From IMG/VR virus record IMGVR_UViG_3300037478_000520, positions 32,001 through 96,000 of that record: DNA of 64,000 bases; one strand, 5' to 3'. Positions 9,143-62,575 of this stretch are shown here, in pieces. How positions within the stretch are numbered: the stretch's first letter is position 1; each line of letters starts with the position of its first letter. The DNA is from a virus. Under the pieces are notes generated by a model. It was not told the DNA's origin. It searched no databases and saw only the letters and a program-made list of their open reading frames with translations. Position numbers and translations under genes: made by a program.

Positions 9143-9547
9143 ATGGTGTGCTGGGAACACGGCCGCCAAGGAACCGGCTACCTCAAGCACAGGCTCGCAA
9201 GCGCCATGTGGCCGATCCCGTGGGACGTGTACTTGCTGAAGTTCCCGCCAGGCTCGCACATTCCAAGGCATCGGGATCTGTCCGTGCTTGGCCGTCACTA
9301 CCGCCTGAACGTGACACTGTGGAATGCGCACCCAAAGCACCCGTTCCAGTCCACAGGCTGGCTGTGGCGGGGATTTGGGCGCCGCGTGGTACTGTTCCGG
9401 CCGGACATTCACGCGCACGCTGTGCGGCGGATTGAGATCGGGACGCGGTACGTGTTGAGCTTTGGGTGGTTGTGCCGTGATCGTGATGGCCGCCAGCCCA
9501 TGGGGTCAGGAAGTTCTGAAGTTGCAGAAGGCTCTCGGCGCCTTTGA
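9143..9547 (+). CDS. 2OG-Fe(II) oxygenase-like protein
   Basis: HxD (RHRD), LFRPD..AHAV, TRYVLSFGW. Confidence 0.75.
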   Translation: MVCWEHGRQGTGYLKHRLASAMWPIPWDVYLLKFPPGSHIPRHRDLSVLGRHYRLNVTLWNAHPKHPFQSTGWLWRGFGRRVVLFRPDIHAHAVRRIEIGTRYVLSFGWLCRDRDGRQPMGSGSSEVAEGSRRL

Positions 9548-9556
9548 AGCCGAGAT
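9521..9556 (+). CRISPR. Solo degenerate CRISPR repeat
   Basis: GTTGCAGAAGGCTCTCGGCGCCTTTGAAGCCGAGAT, close to the array consensus with both helices intact. Confidence 0.85.
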
Positions 9557-9970: not shown

Positions 9971-10017
9971 ATCAGAGATTCTTCAATGTCGTTCTGCTAG
10001 TTGGCAGGCTTGCCCGC

Positions 10018-10560
10018 CAAAGGCGCCGAGGGCCTTGTGCGACGTGCCGTGCTCGCAGTGCCAGAGCTTCCTTGCACCCTTGTCTCAGCTTCAAAGGCGC
10101 TGAGGGCCTTGTGCGACGGTCAGGGAAGTAGTGCGAGAGGTGCGCGTAGCCAAGTCTCAGCTTCAAAGGCGCTGAGGGCCTTGTGCGACGGCCGCCTCGT
10201 CCAGCACGTCCTTGTTCGGAGTTCGGTCTCAGCTTCAAAGGCGCTGAGGGCCTTGTGCGACCGCGAGGAGGCCGCCTGTCGAAGCGCCACAGATGAGGTG
10301 TCTCAGCTTCAAAGGCGCTGAGGGCCTTGTGCGACTCAACCGCCCTGCGGCGAGGGCCGCAAGTACCACCCTCATGTCTCAGCTTCAAAGGCGCTGAGGG
10401 CCTTGTGCGACTCGGCGATCACCTCGGCCATCACGTACCGTCGGTGCTCGCGTCTCAGCTTCAAAGGCGCTGAGGGCCTTGTGCGACTACCCGAGTCCGG
10501 CGCGCGCCACCGCGCTCGCCCCACGTCTCAGCTTCAAAGGCGCTGAGGGCCTTGTGCGAC
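10018..10560 (-). CRISPR. CRISPR array 1 (orphan): 7 full plus 1 truncated repeat, 7 spacers
   Basis: Minus-strand repeat GTCGCACAAGGCCCTCAGCGCCTTTGAAGCTGAGAC (36 nt); spacers 36-40 nt; leader at 10561-10752. Confidence 0.97.
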
Positions 10561-10752
10561 CGCTTCGTCAGATTGTCAAAGATCCCAAGCGCTTGCAAGC
10601 CGGTTTGCGAGAGCCTGTCGCTACGCGCTACAGGACGTCTACCACGGAAGCTGCTTTGGGCTGACGACCATCGGATTTCGCTAATATCCCCGCATTCTTA
10701 GCCAGTTTGCGAGCGGTCCCCGGGGTTGGCGCGCCGCCGGACCTCTCGCGAA
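10561..10752 (-). promoter_or_regulatory. CRISPR leader 1
   Basis: Near-identical reverse complement of 24472-24663. Confidence 0.85.
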
Positions 10753-11609: not shown

Positions 11610-13850
11610 CTATCCGTTCACAGAGAATTTCACGCCGCGGTCACCGTGTCGACTCGACGGCTTCACCACGAGCGGCATGGGGATCACGCTGGTGTTGACC
11701 ACGAGTGCTGGTGAGACCACCTTTTGGGGCGCCTTGGTGAGTGTGGGGCCGAATACCTGCGACGTGCTCTCGACCAGGTCCGGCGGTCCAACCAGCGGAG
11801 CGACGTCGGGTTCAAAGACAACGCTCGAACTCGGCGTGAGTGCGGGCGCCACTTCCGCTGGCGCCACCTTGGCGATGGTCGGCGCAAACACCTGCGACGT
11901 GCTCGACACGGCGTTCGGTAGGACGCTCGGTGCGACCGCCTTCGCAACCGTAGCCCCGAATACCGTCGAGCCACTGGGTACCAGGTTGGGTGCCGCCACA
12001 GGCACGGGGATAGCCGTCACATAGGGCGGCAACACCACCGCGAAATTGCCCACGAGGCTGGGCGATACCGTCTTTGGAGTCGCCTTGGAGACCGTCGGAG
12101 CGTAAACGGTGCTGGTACTGGCCACGATGTCCGGGAACATCTGGATGAGCTGCCCAACATCCGGCTCGAACACCTGCGATGTGCTCGGCACGAGTCCAGG
12201 TTCGACGGCCGGGACGGCTGCCTTGGCGACGGCGGGCGACGCAACGGTCGATGTGCTCGGCGTAAGTCCAGGCTGGACGCTTGCGGGGGTCGCCTTCGCG
12301 ATGGTCGGCGCAAACACTTGCGACGTGCTCGACACGGCGTCTGGCTCGACGCTGGCTGGCGTCGCGAGTGCCACGGTGGGTGCAAACACCTGGGATGAAC
12401 TGGAGACCGCATCGGGGACAACGCTCGCAGGGGTCGCCTTGGCGACGGTCGGGGCGAACACCGTGGACGAACTCGGAACCAGGTCAGGGGCCACGTCCCC
12501 GTCGTCGATTGCCACGGTGGGCCCGAAGACTTGCGACGTGCTCGCAACAACGTCCGGTTCGACGATGGCCGGCGTGGCTTTTGCTACCGTCGGACCGAAG
12601 ACCTGCGCAGTGCTCGCGACAAGGTCGGGTGGGCCGACTTCCTTGGGGGTCGCCTTGGCTACCGTCGGAGCGAAGACCTGCGCGGTGGATGCGACCAGGT
12701 CCGGTTGCACCTGCGGAACAGTTGCCTTGGCTACCGTCGGGCCGAAGACGGTCGCAGTGCTCGCCACCGCGTCGGGCTGCACTGATTGTGGCGTTGCTTT
12801 TGCCACGGTCGGTTGAAAGACCGTGGATGAACTCGGGACGATGTCTGGCTGCGCCGTCAGATCAGACAGCGCGACCGTCGGGCCGAAGACCGAAGAAGTG
12901 CTCGCAACCAGGTCCGGCTGCACCGATGCGGGAGTCGCCTTGGCAACCGTCGGGCTGAAGACCTGGGATGAACTCGCTACCGCATTCGGCTGCACTGACG
13001 CCGGCGTCGCCTTGGCGACGGTCGGCCCAAAGACTTGCGCAGTCGAAGCCACAGCGTTCGGCTGCACACTTGCTGGCGTGGCCTTCGCGACCGTCGGCCC
13101 GAAGACAGAGGATGTGCTCGCGATAAGATCAGGAGGACCGACCTCGATGTCGCCGCCTGGCGTGATGTACTTGGCCTCGAGGTACGCGCTGTTCGTGGCG
13201 ACGTCTGTGTCATCATGGACGACGTCGTAAAAGATCGCCGCGCACGCTCTGAAGTGCTGAAAGCTGCCGTTGAGCGAACGCCCGAACCGCGCGGTGTCCA
13301 TCGACGTTGCGCCAGTGAAGACGTCTGACGCCGTCACGACGTTGACCTCAACGCCGTTCTTGTAGAACGTCATCGCGTTGCCGACGTCGACAAGCGTTAC
13401 AGCCCAGACAGCCCACTCCACGAAGTCACCAGCCGTGGCAGCGTAGATTGCTCCAGAAATGTTGATCTCAAGCCGATCCGGAGCGTCCTGCGCCATGATC
13501 AACGGGAACGCTTGGTCTGCCTGGTTGCGGCCGTAGTTGAAGCCGACCTCGTCGGCGCCGTCATCGTAGTAGTATCCGACCTGATAGATGGTCCGATCTG
13601 AGTCTTGGTTGGGCAGGCCAGTCGGGCTAGCTTTCTCCAGCGACTCGTCGGTGCCGTTGAAGTCGACGTAATCGGCTCCGCTCGGCGTTCCACCAGCAAC
13701 TAACTCGCCACCGATGTCAGAACCGATAGGCGTGAAGTCGTTGCCCTGACCGCTTGAATCGGCCCACTCCGTGACTTCGGTCCCATCGAGCGAGATGCCG
13801 GTGTCGGACTCGAGATCAATCCGTCGGTTGGCCGTGATCGGCGTCGTCAC
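11610..13850 (-). CDS. Virion protein: LamG/ConA-like head plus about 19 tandem ~26-aa repeats
   Basis: Repeats of VQPDxVASTSQVFGPTVAKATPAS. Confidence 0.85.
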   Translation of the reverse strand: MTTPITANRRIDLESDTGISLDGTEVTEWADSSGQGNDFTPIGSDIGGELVAGGTPSGADYVDFNGTDESLEKASPTGLPNQDSDRTIYQVGYYYDDGADEVGFNYGRNQADQAFPLIMAQDAPDRLEINISGAIYAATAGDFVEWAVWAVTLVDVGNAMTFYKNGVEVNVVTASDVFTGATSMDTARFGRSLNGSFQHFRACAAIFYDVVHDDTDVATNSAYLEAKYITPGGDIEVGPPDLIASTSSVFGPTVAKATPASVQPNAVASTAQVFGPTVAKATPASVQPNAVASSSQVFSPTVAKATPASVQPDLVASTSSVFGPTVALSDLTAQPDIVPSSSTVFQPTVAKATPQSVQPDAVASTATVFGPTVAKATVPQVQPDLVASTAQVFAPTVAKATPKEVGPPDLVASTAQVFGPTVAKATPAIVEPDVVASTSQVFGPTVAIDDGDVAPDLVPSSSTVFAPTVAKATPASVVPDAVSSSSQVFAPTVALATPASVEPDAVSSTSQVFAPTIAKATPASVQPGLTPSTSTVASPAVAKAAVPAVEPGLVPSTSQVFEPDVGQLIQMFPDIVASTSTVYAPTVSKATPKTVSPSLVGNFAVVLPPYVTAIPVPVAAPNLVPSGSTVFGATVAKAVAPSVLPNAVSSTSQVFAPTIAKVAPAEVAPALTPSSSVVFEPDVAPLVGPPDLVESTSQVFGPTLTKAPQKVVSPALVVNTSVIPMPLVVKPSSRHGDRGVKFSVNG

Positions 13851-24663: not shown

Positions 24664-25287
24664 GTCGCACAAGGCCCTCGGCGCCTTTGAAGCCGAGACT
24701 CCTGTGCTCCGGGCGGGGCGACCATTGCGAGGCAGTGTCGCACAAGGCCCTCGGCGCCTTTGAAGCCGAGACTTGTGCTCGAGGGCGCGCAAGGCATCGG
24801 AAAGTCTACCGCGGTCGCACAAGGCCCTCGGCGCCTTTGAAGCCGAGACGTGGGGGCGAGCGCGGTGGCGCGCGCCGGACTCGGGTAGTCGCACAAGGCC
24901 CTCGGCGCCTTTGAAGCCGAGACCGGCTGCAGGACGTGCTGGATTGGCTTGCGAGCCGGGGGGTCGCACAAGGCCCTCGGCGCCTTTGAAGCCGAGACGT
25001 GATCAGCCGCGTAGACCGCCAGCAGCGTCCACGCGGTCGCACAAGGCCCTCGGCGCCTTTGAAGCCGAGACTCTTGTTCTTGCATCTCTCCAAGAATCGC
25101 CCTATGGGGGTCGCACAAGGCCCTCGGCGCCTTTGAAGCCGAGACCCCAATCCCAGGTCGGAGACGGAACTCGCGCAGTCGTCGCACAAGGCCCTCGGCG
25201 CCTTTGAAGCCGAGACCGTAGGTCTGTGAGCACGTGGTGCAAGCCGATGGAGTATCACAAGGCCCTCGGCGCCTTTGAAGCCGAGAA
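24664..25287 (+). CRISPR. CRISPR array 2 (orphan): 9 repeats, 8 spacers
   Basis: Repeat GTCGCACAAGGCCCTCGGCGCCTTTGAAGCCGAGAC; degenerate last repeat. Confidence 0.98.
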
Positions 25288-48207: not shown

Positions 48208-48735
48208 ATGACATCTTACACTGTAATCATAACGTGGGCGCTCGCCGCTAGCGCTGGGACCGGACAGACAACCGTCTGCTTTGAGGCCGCATCGCCCGAC
48301 CCTGCCAAGGCGGCCGTGGAAGCGTGGCGGACCCCCGTCACGCACAGCGGTTCCGCTGTAATCGAGTGGATGCCCGAAACCGCTGTAATCGCGTCCGTGC
48401 GGGCCGTGGCTGACGGGTGCGGCAAACATGCCCGCCCGTCCATCGCCAAGCCGCCCGAGGCGACAATCCTCGAGATTCCCGCTGCGACCTATCCCGCCAC
48501 CGTCCACTACCGCACGCCCGACGGATCGACGGCCCGATGCGACGCGACAATCCTGTGCTCCGGGCGGGGCGACCATTGCGAGGCCGTGATAGACCCTGGC
48601 GCCTGCACATCGCACTGGGGACTTGAGCAATGTCTCGCCAGCACCGTGGCCGTACCCGGCGACGATTCCGCCGATACCCTGGGGTGCGACCCGGGCGCCC
48701 GGCTGCTCGATATCGACTGGACGGACCCGCTGTAA
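48208..48735 (+). CDS. Hypothetical Cys-containing protein; carries the protospacer of array 2 spacer 1
   Basis: AAGGG SD; 48551-48587 matches spacer 24700-24736 at 36/37. Confidence 0.65.
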   Translation: MTSYTVIITWALAASAGTGQTTVCFEAASPDPAKAAVEAWRTPVTHSGSAVIEWMPETAVIASVRAVADGCGKHARPSIAKPPEATILEIPAATYPATVHYRTPDGSTARCDATILCSGRGDHCEAVIDPGACTSHWGLEQCLASTVAVPGDDSADTLGCDPGARLLDIDWTDPL

Positions 48736-59377: not shown

Positions 59378-59486
59378 AGCGCCGATCAGAGAAGGGGAGA
59401 TCGCCACAGTCACCAAACGACTGCGCGTCACACCCGAGCAAGCCGAGGAGCTGGAGCGGGCTCCAGCGCAAAAGAAGGAAACTTGA
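59370..59486 (+). CDS. 38-aa RHH-like ORF (not in the ORF track)
   Basis: AAGAAGGA SD, TTG start, KRLRVTPEQAEELER. Confidence 0.45.
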   Translation: MTRAPIREGEIATVTKRLRVTPEQAEELERAPAQKKET

Positions 59487-59488
59487 AA

Positions 59489-61588
59489 ATGCAAACCATC
59501 GCCTACAAATACCGGATCCTTCGCGTGCTCTCCGACGAGCGGGCTATCATGGACGAGATCCGAGCCGGTCACCGGCTCTACAACGATCTAGTCGCCATCG
59601 AGCGCAAGCGACGGGCCGCGACCGAGGCGTTCTGGGCTGAGCGTGGTGGGTACCAGGATCTTCTGGCCGAGCGTGGGAAGGCCATCGAATTCGCCGAGTC
59701 GATTCCCAAGGGCGATGATCGGCGCGAGGAGAAGCGCGCGGCATGGCGCGCTGTGAACGATCTGCGTAAGCAGATCTGGGAGTGCGAGAAGGACGCCATC
59801 AAAGCGTTCCACGCGAGCGATCCCGTGAAGATCCGCAGGATGGAACGCGCCAAGGAACTCCGTGCTGCTGCGAAGGCGCGCAAGGAAAAGCTAACGGCGA
59901 AAAAGATCGCGGACATTCTTGACGAGGAACCAGATTGCCTGACCGAGCGGGATAAGCTGCGCAAAACGCTTATCCAGAGCTACAAGGATCGCGGCGTCGG
60001 GATCAGTGCGAAAACCGTGGCTGGCAAGCTCGCAGAGGCATTCCCTGGTCCGACGGAACACGTCGAGCAGGAGGCGAAAGCCGCGGCGTACACAGCCTAT
60101 CGCGAACGCGGTGTTACGCCCGGTACGCGCGCGGTGGTTGCGGACGCGCATGAGCGCTCGCTTGAGATGCTCGAGTGGCGAGAGCAACGCTTCAAGCCGT
60201 GGTCCGGCCACGGCGCATTCGGAACGCAAATCCAAGGAGGCGCGACGTACGGCGACCTATGCAGTGGCAGCCACACGTTTGCTCAACTGGAGTGCCTCGA
60301 CCGCGGCAACTACACTCCTGGATCTCGCCGGCATGGCAGTCTGCACAGGCTACGCGTGCGCCTTGGGTCGGACGGTCAGAAGCCCGTCTGGGCGGAATTC
60401 GAAGCGAGCCTACTTCGCAGCGGCCCGCGTACGTCCGCGTCGACATCGGATCCGATCCCACCCGATGCGCGCGTAATGCAAGTGCGCGTGGTGGTCGACC
60501 GAATCGGCGTGCACGACCACTGGTACGTCTGTTTCACGGCTCAGGTTCCGGACGCCGTGCACTTGCGGGATGAGCCGCCGACGAAGGGCGGGACGGTGGC
60601 CATCGACATTGGGTGGCGCAGTTTGGACGGTGGTTTGCGGGTCGGATACTTCCACGACGGGCAAGAGCACGGCCCCATCGACCTGCCAACGATCCGCAAG
60701 CGACTCAAGCCGCACGGGAAGCGAGGCGCCAAGGCGAAGTGGTTCGAAGTGCGCGACGTGTTCGATCACGCGAGTCACATCCAAGGGATCCTGTCTCAGG
60801 AATTCTACTCCGAGGACAAGGATGCGGCCGTGTACGGCGGCGCCTTGCATGACCTAGCGGTCTGGATCGACTCGCGCGGGCGCGATGCTCTCCCCGAGTG
60901 GCTCTCCGAATCTACCGCCGGGATCCGACAGTGGCGTTCGCAAGCTCGGCTCAACGGACTAGTTGAACGATGGCTTCACAACCGTTTCGAGGGCGACGGT
61001 CAAATCGTCGCTCGCATGGATCAGTGGCGCAAAGACTATAGGCATTTGCATGAATGGTGCGCGCGGGAGAGAAACCGCGCCCTGAACGCGCGCGACGAGC
61101 ACTACAGGCAGACCGCGCTACGCCTCGCGCGCGCGTACGAAACGATCGTGATCAACGGCGCCGACCTTGCAACCACGCGCCGCCGCAAACGGAAAGAGAA
61201 GGCCGCCCCCGAGCTGGTCATGGTCGAGGATGCGAAGCGTTCGCAGGCCTTCGACGCCGCGCCGGGGAAGCTCCGGGAAGAGATCGTAAAGGCGGCAAAG
61301 AAGTACGGCCGGACACTGGTCAAATTGCCGTTCGAAACCGAGAGGTGTCACGTTTGCGGGGAGGTGTGTGAATTTGACCGTGCCCGCTATCTCTCACACA
61401 AGTGCGAGCACGAGCCATGCACAGCACAGTGGGACCAGGACGCCAACGCGTGCCTGAATGCCCTTCGCGAGTGGTCCGGTGGCGCGAAAACCCCGGGGAC
61501 CGCTCGCAAACGCGACAAGCCCGCGAAGTCACGTGAGAAAACGACGGGGCGCGGCGACGCAATAGGCGCTGTGAGCGATTCGCTGTAG
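59489..61588 (+). CDS. cas12m: Type V CRISPR effector, Cas12m (V-M/V-U1)-like, probably nuclease-deficient
   Basis: RLGSDG..PVW, TVAIDIGWRS (RuvC-I), QWRSQ.R, R.RAL..RDE.YRQ.A, IVINGADL (RuvC-II E>N), AAPG.LR, CxxC..C...C Zn finger, WDQD.NA (RuvC-III); adjacent 36-nt-repeat array. Confidence 0.88.
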   Translation: MQTIAYKYRILRVLSDERAIMDEIRAGHRLYNDLVAIERKRRAATEAFWAERGGYQDLLAERGKAIEFAESIPKGDDRREEKRAAWRAVNDLRKQIWECEKDAIKAFHASDPVKIRRMERAKELRAAAKARKEKLTAKKIADILDEEPDCLTERDKLRKTLIQSYKDRGVGISAKTVAGKLAEAFPGPTEHVEQEAKAAAYTAYRERGVTPGTRAVVADAHERSLEMLEWREQRFKPWSGHGAFGTQIQGGATYGDLCSGSHTFAQLECLDRGNYTPGSRRHGSLHRLRVRLGSDGQKPVWAEFEASLLRSGPRTSASTSDPIPPDARVMQVRVVVDRIGVHDHWYVCFTAQVPDAVHLRDEPPTKGGTVAIDIGWRSLDGGLRVGYFHDGQEHGPIDLPTIRKRLKPHGKRGAKAKWFEVRDVFDHASHIQGILSQEFYSEDKDAAVYGGALHDLAVWIDSRGRDALPEWLSESTAGIRQWRSQARLNGLVERWLHNRFEGDGQIVARMDQWRKDYRHLHEWCARERNRALNARDEHYRQTALRLARAYETIVINGADLATTRRRKRKEKAAPELVMVEDAKRSQAFDAAPGKLREEIVKAAKKYGRTLVKLPFETERCHVCGEVCEFDRARYLSHKCEHEPCTAQWDQDANACLNALREWSGGAKTPGTARKRDKPAKSREKTTGRGDAIGAVSDSL

Positions 61589-61656
61589 ACCTGGGATCAG
61601 GAGCGCTCGCAAAACGGTTTGCAAGCGCGTGGGATCTTTGACAATCTAGCCGAGCT
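61464..61656 (+). promoter_or_regulatory. CRISPR leader 3, overlapping the cas12 3' end
   Basis: First 48 nt are 47/48 identical to 24472-24519; proximal TTGCAAGCGCGTGGGATCTTTGACAATCTAGC is shared. Confidence 0.85.
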
Positions 61657-62575
61657 GTATCAGAAGGCCCTCGGCGCCTTTGAAGCCGAGACCAGATGGC
61701 GTTGTGCATCTGGTTGTCGAGCCGCCGGGTATCAGAAGGCCCTCGGCGCCTTTGAAGCCGAGACCGCGACTGGCTTCATTCGGTTACTTTTTTCGATACT
61801 CGTATCAGAAGGCCCTCGGCGCCTTTGAAGCCGAGACACGCCCATGTCCGAGCCGCAGCGAAGCGCGTCGCCTCGTATCAGAAGGCCCTCGGCGCCTTTG
61901 AAGCCGAGACAGGGGGACCGCTCACCCGCAAGAGCGCTTTCAGCCGGCGGTATCACAAGGCCCTCGGCGCCTTTGAAGCCGAGACCCGCACGTCCGGATC
62001 GGCGAGCACCGGCGGTACGTGAGTATCAGAAGGCCCTCGGCGCCTTTGAAGCCGAGACTCTTGTTCTTGCATCTCTCCAAGAATCGCCCTATGGGGGTCG
62101 CACAAGGCCCTCGGCGCCTTTGAAGCCGAGACGCGCGCTGGAATGGTGGCGCTGCGCATCGGCGCGATCGTCGCACAAGGCCCTCGGCGCCTTTGAAGCC
62201 GAGACTAACACCCGGGCGCTGTTACCAAACACCCCAAGGCAGGGGTCGCACAAGGCCCTCGGCGCCTTTGAAGCCGAGACCGCGCGGCGCCGAAGCCGAA
62301 GGCGAAGCCACTCGCGCGCGTGTCGCACAAGGCCCTCGGCGCCTTTGAAGCCGAGACACGGGAGTCATCTTCGTGACCGGAACGAATACCCAGTCGCACA
62401 AGGCCCTCGGCGCCTTTGAAGCCGAGACTGTTTGGCGACGGCGCGAACTCCAAGTCGACCATCCTCGGTATCAGAAGGCCCTCGGCGCCTTTGAAGCCGA
62501 GACACTGATCACGACCTACGCGAGGTGGTCGCCGACGTGGTATCACAAGGCCCTCGGCGCCTTTGAAGCTGAGAT
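61657..62575 (+). CRISPR. CRISPR array 3 (cas-adjacent): 13 repeats, 12 spacers
   Basis: Core AAGGCCCTCGGCGCCTTTGAAGCCGAGAC with 5' variants GTATCAG, GTATCAC and GTCGCAC. Confidence 0.98.

Follow-up and report, generated by a model that had tools for sequence, protein, structure and literature searches.

Two spacers that sit in different CRISPR arrays of one phage genome, the second of array 1 (A1_2) and the fifth of array 3 (A3_5), overlap end to end and in the same orientation, and they represent overlapping protospacers sampled by two separate acquisitions. In the reading that we prefer, and hold with moderate confidence, both were taken separately from one foreign gene, likely a divergent AlpA/Vis/Xis-type regulator of a rival element, which would be silenced by the phage's own Cas12m.

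The window analysed here is a stretch of 64,000 nucleotides, bases 32001-96000 of a 113,660-bp IMG/VR virus record (linear, approximately 82% complete); positions are those of the window unless another sequence is named, and its features are collected in Table 1. The record encodes a tail sheath (DUF2586), a tape measure protein and, beyond the window, a tyrosine integrase, and the virus is a temperate phage. Just 3' of the integrase gene, a stretch at L029:2140-2215 (genome 24190-24265) resembles part of a tRNA or tmRNA, namely the T-arm with the 3' acceptor end (GGTTCAAGCCCGCC...). This stretch, in which ARAGORN did not find a complete tRNA, is probably the attP core.

Table 1. Positions in the window of the arrays, leaders, effector gene and spacers discussed in the text.
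Feature	Position	Strand	Description
CRISPR array 1	10008..10560	-	8 repeats of 36 nt, 7 spacers
Array 1 spacer 2 (A1_2)	10412..10451	-	40 nt; first 21 nt (crRNA sense) overlap A3_5
Array 1 leader	10561..10740	-	conserved blocks common to leaders of arrays 2 and 3
CRISPR array 2	24664..25287	+	9 repeats, 8 spacers
Spacer A2_2	24773..24813	+	encodes VLEGAQGIGKSTA; Walker A segment of VapE-like primase-helicase
Spacer A2_4	24924..24962	+	frame +1 reads RLQDVLDWLASRG; AlpA profile, C-terminal helix
Cas12m-like effector gene	59483..61588	+	701-aa ORF directly upstream of array 3 leader
Array 3 leader	61477..61656	+	
CRISPR array 3	61657..62575	+	13 repeats, 12 spacers; mosaic of two repeat variants
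Array 3 spacer 5 (A3_5)	61986..62022	+	37 nt; last 21 nt overlap A1_2
Spacer A3_11	62429..62467	+	encodes FGDGANSKSTIL; Walker A segment, P4-family primase C-terminal domain

The same 36-nt repeat, in crRNA sense GTCGCACAAGGCCCTCGGCGCCTTTGAAGCCGAGAC, occurs with close variants in all three arrays of the window. Array orientation follows from the conserved leaders, the degenerate far-end repeats, the hairpin at the repeat's 3' end and the order effector, leader, array at 59483-62575. The hairpin (CUCGGC...GCCGAG) has a compensatory pair in the array 1 repeat (CTCAGC...GCTGAG), and the mosaic of array 3 is made up of GTATCAG-type and GTCGCAC-type repeats. A solitary degenerate repeat, oriented opposite to array 1, lies at 9521-9556, approximately 450 nt past the array's far end. 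On the other side, beside array 1, a 746-aa ORF (11610-13850, minus strand) has no family match and contains many copies of ...STSQVF.PTVAKA...; it may encode a repetitive fibre-like structural protein.

Aligned in crRNA orientation, positions 17-37 of A3_5 and 1-21 of A1_2 agree at 20 of 21 positions (blastn-short E 1.4e-6). The match is terminal on both spacers, running from the first base of one to the last of the other, and the two have an identical orientation to the repeat; an end-to-end, same-orientation match of this kind is what two protospacers overlapping on a single strand should give. In 300 first-order-Markov simulations of the 27 spacers, with up to one mismatch allowed, the longest run averaged 12.8 and reached a maximum of 16, against the 21 observed. 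The single difference is A versus G, giving CGA versus CGG in the proposed frame, and is synonymous. Translated in frame +1, the merged 56-mer reads PHVRIGEHRRYVMAEVIA, and the A1_2 protospacer is preceded by ...GGATCG. The overlap with its one synonymous change, the merged translation and the 5' flank all read as the first-pass annotation had described them. Its proposal of two independent acquisitions also holds, since the 16-nt offset and the unequal lengths (40 and 37 nt) cannot be derived by duplication or repeat-mediated recombination and separate acquisitions are therefore needed.

The proposed reading frame was assessed with a codon-usage model trained on 30 long ORFs of the record, the accuracy of which on random 37-nt gene pieces is 62% for frame and 73% for strand. 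For the merged sequence the model chose frame +1 (7.6 bits, versus 2.1 for the next frame), and it made the same choice for A1_2 alone and for A3_5 alone, which bears out the frame proposed earlier. Frame -1 has the same 18/18 GC3 pattern, and the single-base difference is synonymous there too; its codon-model score is -0.1 bits, and its codon position 2 is richer in G+C than position 1, the reverse of the record's genes (GC1 0.645, GC2 0.494). Frame -1 is disfavoured by codon usage and profile score only.

The protospacer itself was sought widely. A search with the merged 56-mer, which had been suggested as the way to find the target, did not recover it: blastn against phage and plasmid collections returned chance-level matches only, and codon-wobble patterns of the merged sequence had no match in IMG/VR, GTDB genome contigs or JGI metagenome contigs. 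The whole of array 3 had no match in the phage and plasmid collections, and, with the top two candidates per genome scored, only chance or low-complexity matches in 401 Planctomycetota and 401 Myxococcota genomes. Seeds from A2_6 and A1_1 and wobble patterns for A3_11 and A2_4 found nothing in IMG/VR, nor did all spacers together in 27 Cas12m-related loci. A 54-aa concatenation of frames +1, -1 and -3 had no counterpart, at near or longer lengths, among 5.8 billion proteins. Near the phage's integrase, 14 nt of A3_5 match within an HNH/HTH ORF (AAGEHRLALAAEYG), and this match was set aside as chance.

Because the protospacer is absent from the databases searched, the family of the target was judged through profiles of natural sequences. 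The merged peptide had been likened to the wing of Xis/HTH_17 excisionases. Against a profile built from 30 natural AlpA (PF05930) domains of Myxococcota genomes it scores 6.7 bits at positions 35-51 (krvrlGpravgWreseV), which take in the wing and the beginning of the last helix, and this score was reached by 1 of 2000 shuffles and 2 of 4000 natural 18-mers (empirical p ~5e-4), while other frames of the merged sequence score -0.9 or less. Strings of the PHVRLG, RRIGRRAIGY and AEINAW type occur in natural AlpA members at the register of the merged peptide, which differs from these members in a wing one residue shorter and in a Y where most have W, a replacement also found in 3 of the 30 natural members (L081, L084, L085). 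After this Y the peptide continues with AEVIA and stops just before the W expected from the family pattern (E-[VI]-x-A-W).

It is possible, if somewhat unlikely, that the overlap is real and the target belongs to another family or is an unknown ORF, the AlpA/Xis likeness being chance for an 18-residue peptide. True AlpA fragments score far higher in a leave-one-out comparison (median 21.8 bits, range 3.8-27.4), which places the 6.7 bits of the merged peptide at the bottom of their range. Such a target would also fit with the empty Pfam and PDB scans of the bare and padded merged 18-aa peptide, with an HTH_17-subfamily profile (150 representatives of one phage subfamily) that does not separate the peptide from shuffles, 25% of which score as well, and with the finding that no homologue sharing three 5-residue words with it occurs among 5.8 billion proteins. 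It accords less well with a family that was named before testing and then returned a low empirical p in the correct alignment register, with a second spacer, A2_4, that independently tops the same AlpA profile, and with the agreement of the codon model on the frame. The proposed excisionase wing therefore survives in part, in a weak AlpA-profile signal with none from the HTH_17-subfamily profile, Pfam or PDB, and we regard the target as, at best, a divergent member of the AlpA winged-helix group.

Three further spacers could be assigned to gene families. A2_4 is the top of 188 stop-free spacer peptides on the AlpA profile (7.8 bits, positions 47-58; reached by none of 6000 controls), and its natural AlpA comparators include RLSEVSEWVESR; it and the merged peptide agree at only 1 of 7 co-covered profile positions and therefore stem from different genes. 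A2_2 scores 11.0 bits on a VapE-like profile, at the Walker A segment (best control 5.1), and the sole match of the Pfam VapE model in six frames of the record, at window positions 24745-24819, is this spacer. A3_11 scores 5.2 bits on a P4-family primase profile, again at the Walker A segment (best control 0.3), and the A2_2 and A3_11 peptides are each specific to their own family. All four assigned spacers are in the frame that the codon model picked independently. AlpA, VapE and P4-primase genes were sought in the phage record and none was found, from which it follows that the targets of these spacers are foreign. A preference for such motifs may be only apparent, an effect of ascertainment, since recognition from 12 residues works only in conserved motifs. 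In array 1, the codon-model frame of spacer A1_4 (10262-10299) reads LICGASTGGLLA, which contains a patatin-like G-x-S-x-G string.

A wobble-tolerant A2_2 pattern found one genome in IMG/VR, IMGVR_UViG_3300044960_000727 (41 kb, terminal repeats, approximately 50% GC), in which a 750-aa Prim-Pol/VapE gene shares 13 of 13 aa and 36 of 41 nt with the spacer. Of the five nucleotide differences, four are at codon third positions, and the fifth is in the partial 5' codon (xTT versus TTA), which may be a synonymous Leu codon. Its GC content marks this genome as the source of a homologue of the A2_2 target, not of the target itself. The same genome (L134:3235-4795) encodes an adenylosuccinate-synthetase-like protein and a protein with a dATP/dGTP diphosphohydrolase N-terminal domain, a pair that we take to be typical of 2-aminoadenine (Z) genome phages.

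Genes of two of the assigned families are neighbours in Myxococcota, where alpA lies directly beside P4-family primase genes (G501:C102:2604-5222; G459:C24:110-2796; G501:C136:4880-7566); the pairing is a module typical of P4-like and PICI-type elements and points to integrative modules of this sort in the phylum. In Gram-negative hosts, PICI satellites are activated by AlpA on helper infection, and P4 requires the AlpA homologue Vis to excise (PMC6092414).

The flank exposed by the overlap had been put forward as a direct PAM clue. Read from A3_5, the bases 5' of A1_2 are ATCG, and at the aligned position of the A2_2-target homologue in IMGVR_UViG_3300044960_000727 they are ATCT. The clue gains from this second flank, which agrees with ATCN, but at n = 2, with one flank taken by homology, it yields a tentative PAM of 5'-TCN, possibly ATCN. 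Such a PAM would be in line with the 5' T- or C-rich PAMs reported for Cas12m, and unlike that solved for GoCas12m, 5'-TTN (PMC11013384, PMC10442227). When the phage's own genome was searched by blastn and tblastn, the only hit was a self-match of A2_1 (24700-24736), the newest spacer of array 2, to 48551-48587, a region of small early-type ORFs, with 34 nt exact from position 1 and 36 of 37 overall. Its 5' flank, ACAA, is unlike ATCN, which is a possible reason why the match is tolerated; it could reflect kin targeting or tolerated self-targeting.

Spacers are also shared between arrays in ways other than the A1_2/A3_5 overlap. A2_6 and A3_6 are identical (25072-25109 and 62059-62096). A1_1 (10488-10524), A2_3 (24850-24887) and the first spacer (L016:3297-3332) of a variant strain, L016 (metagenome contig Ga0326597_10076742; approximately 96% nt identity), have a common 5' end; A1_1 and A2_3 differ by a slip in a G run (G4 versus G5), the L016 spacer is 2 nt shorter at its 3' end, and the three are versions of a single protospacer that vary in length or G run. 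Sharing of these kinds, between A2_6 and A3_6 and among A1_1, A2_3 and the L016 spacer, is better explained by array shuffling. L016 retains A3_4 and A3_5, whose neighbours on either side are replaced by other spacers, and these changed flanks, together with the repeat-variant mosaic, indicate shuffling of cassettes between arrays. The differing spacer content of two such close strains further implies that turnover is ongoing in the phage lineage. Two other likenesses between spacers, A1_2 with A3_12 (14/15; 15 nt with one mismatch) and A1_5 with A2_4 (13 nt exact), lie inside the simulated chance range and were discarded.

The first-pass annotation had also read the A/G difference as a sign of two alleles of the target. 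The copy of A3_5 in L016 is identical base for base, so this spacer has stayed unchanged in two strains approximately 4% apart elsewhere; spacer drift is accordingly slow, which favours, without proving, two target alleles behind the difference. That a single allele was sampled, for instance by clustered or primed acquisition in one encounter, with the one-base difference arising later by mutation within an array, seems to us possible, if somewhat unlikely: a lone difference over 21 nt does not tell the two histories apart, about a quarter to a third of random substitutions are synonymous, and near-identical spacers elsewhere (A1_1 and A2_3; the first spacer of L016) do differ by small slips. 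Slow drift weighs against a later mutation, as does the nature of the change, a third-position transition in the favoured frame. With a synonymous change and a G form stable in two strains, the sampling of two target alleles is plausible, and this part of the earlier account stands beside post-acquisition mutation, which fits too.

The effector encoded next to array 3 is a member of the Cas12m (type V-M) family, with homology to characterised Cas12m across the WED/REC/RuvC/TNB core. The 701-aa protein matches PDB 23vw at E 2.4e-36 (phmmer), and a family profile built from it and eight metagenomic relatives matches 23vw at 2.5e-89, GoCas12m (8pm4) at 8.3e-44 and Cas12m2 (8hio) at 2.6e-38, with TnpB and Cas12f far weaker. 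It bears a TNB zinc-ribbon (PF07282), and its closest Cas12m relatives (P0002-P0008) are 57-38% identical to it. Its RuvC residues are D375 (VAVDIGWR), D651 (WDQD) and, in RuvC II (IVINGADL), an N in the place of the E of its relatives. The resulting D-N-D triad is among those published for Cas12m (PMC10442227), and characterised Cas12m binds PAM-flanked DNA without cutting it, silences transcription and can block replication (PMC11013384, PMC10442227). Coming from a binding-only family, the D-N-D effector of the phage is predicted to be non-cutting. A distant Cas12m/TnpB-like gene (23% identity) is present in a Planctomycetota MAG (JANQEJ010000327.1, L033:5515-8175), where irregularly spaced copies of the crRNA handle (GGCAGCTCGGCGCCTTTGAAGCCGAGAC-like), in no regular array, lie on both sides of it.

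A six-frame search of the whole record, approximately 82% complete, for Cas1 (PF01867), the one adaptation protein covered, gave no match at E<=1. Known V-M systems are without adaptation genes (PMC11013384, PMC10442227). With no Cas1 found in the record, spacers may have entered through host enzymes acting in trans, through array recombination, or through genes in the missing 18%.

It is quite improbable, in our judgement, that the arrays are passengers, their spacers first gained where Cas1-Cas2 served a bacterial array, then taken over and reshuffled by the phage, with the overlap then silent on present targets. The missing Cas1, the repeat-variant mosaics, the spacers common to several arrays and the Planctomycetota MAG gene amid copies of the same crRNA handle would suit such an origin, but all three arrays have conserved leaders, repeats are intact, the array 1 hairpin has changed in a compensatory way, an intact effector adjoins array 3, and the spacer content that differs between two close strains speaks for turnover in the phage lineage itself. 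Coincidence between GC-rich spacers, to which the two discarded likenesses inside the chance range might lend colour, has a practically negligible probability as an explanation of a 21-nt match that is terminal on both spacers and co-oriented, and the simulations reject it.

Under the reading that we prefer, A1_2 and A3_5 would have been taken separately from the coding strand of a single foreign gene, at overlapping protospacers 16 nt apart in position. The merged 56 nt would be a piece of the 3' half of this gene, which would most likely encode a divergent winged-helix protein of the AlpA/Vis/Xis type that regulates another integrative mobile element, be it a satellite, an island or a prophage. 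Cas12m, as the only cas gene of the phage, would be loaded with crRNAs from the three leader-driven arrays, bind TCN-flanked sites on other mobile elements and block transcription or replication of those elements. The A1_2 and A3_5 crRNAs would park it twice in the regulator gene, so that this gene and those downstream would be silenced, and having two guides per site may provide redundancy against the G/A variant, which the A1_2 guide meets at its position 10 and the A3_5 guide at its position 26. Should the gene be AlpA/Vis-like, we infer an effect on excision or induction, and it is a reasonable guess that the rival element would be kept integrated, as had been supposed for repression of xis. 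Cas12m can, however, interfere by binding almost anywhere on an element, and the gene hit may for that reason be incidental and not a strategy of repressing xis.

A broader picture, which we think unlikely as a whole, would make the binding-only Cas12m of the temperate phage a natural CRISPRi weapon, in which guides acquired in trans and shuffled between arrays silence alpA/vis-like activator or excision genes of co-resident satellites and islands together with VapE-like and P4-family primase-helicase genes, the elements stay locked in the chromosome during phage replication, and overlapping guides cover allelic variants.

Overlapping spacers, Cas12m and phage-borne CRISPR directed against rivals are all of kinds already known. 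Primed adaptation occurs in type I systems, and viral sequence has been assembled from overlapping spacers in metagenomes. The present pair is like repeated acquisition from one protospacer region, in that two co-oriented overlapping spacers extend the target beyond either of them, and unlike type I primed adaptation in that the system's own adaptation module was not found here and the two arrays lie 51 kb apart on the phage genome.

With type V-M Cas12m (MmCas12m2, GoCas12m; PMC11013384, PMC10442227) the phage system shares the effector family, the TNB zinc-ribbon and a RuvC sequence that reads as non-canonical, a 36-nt repeat with a 3' hairpin handle, an array directly downstream of the effector and, by the Cas1 search of the approximately 82%-complete record, the absence of adaptation genes. 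Its protein is approximately 100 aa longer than MmCas12m2 and GoCas12m (701 versus ~600 aa), and, unlike them, it is found on a temperate phage with three dispersed arrays and is known here from sequence. The type I-F system that ICP1 directs against PLE in Vibrio cholerae likewise consists of phage arrays aimed at a co-resident mobile element, but it cleaves and degrades PLE and comes with adaptation genes of its own (PMC9040626, PMC8263062), whereas the effector here is of a binding-only family, Cas1 was not found, and the target element is only inferred. As for the AlpA/Vis/Xis regulators of P4-like satellites, PICIs and islands (PF05930; PMC6092414), the merged peptide and A2_4 align with their wing and last helix in the correct register, and A3_11 matches the Walker A segment of the same primase family that accompanies alpA in the Myxococcota neighbourhoods; unlike true AlpA members, the merged peptide, from a target known as a 56-nt fragment, scores far lower.

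Overlapping spacers are one of the few ways past a single protospacer when the target is missing from databases, and here the overlap yields 56 nt of the target with its reading frame and exposes one real 5' flank. In combination with the three other assigned spacers, it suggests that a phage-borne, predicted non-cutting Cas12m is directed against other mobile elements, at their genes for regulation and replication, and the tentative 5'-TCN PAM and intact effector make this reading testable at the bench. If it is true, CRISPR-mediated conflict between phages and satellites would reach beyond Vibrio ICP1 and PLE, and silencing by Cas12m would gain a natural role on the phage side.
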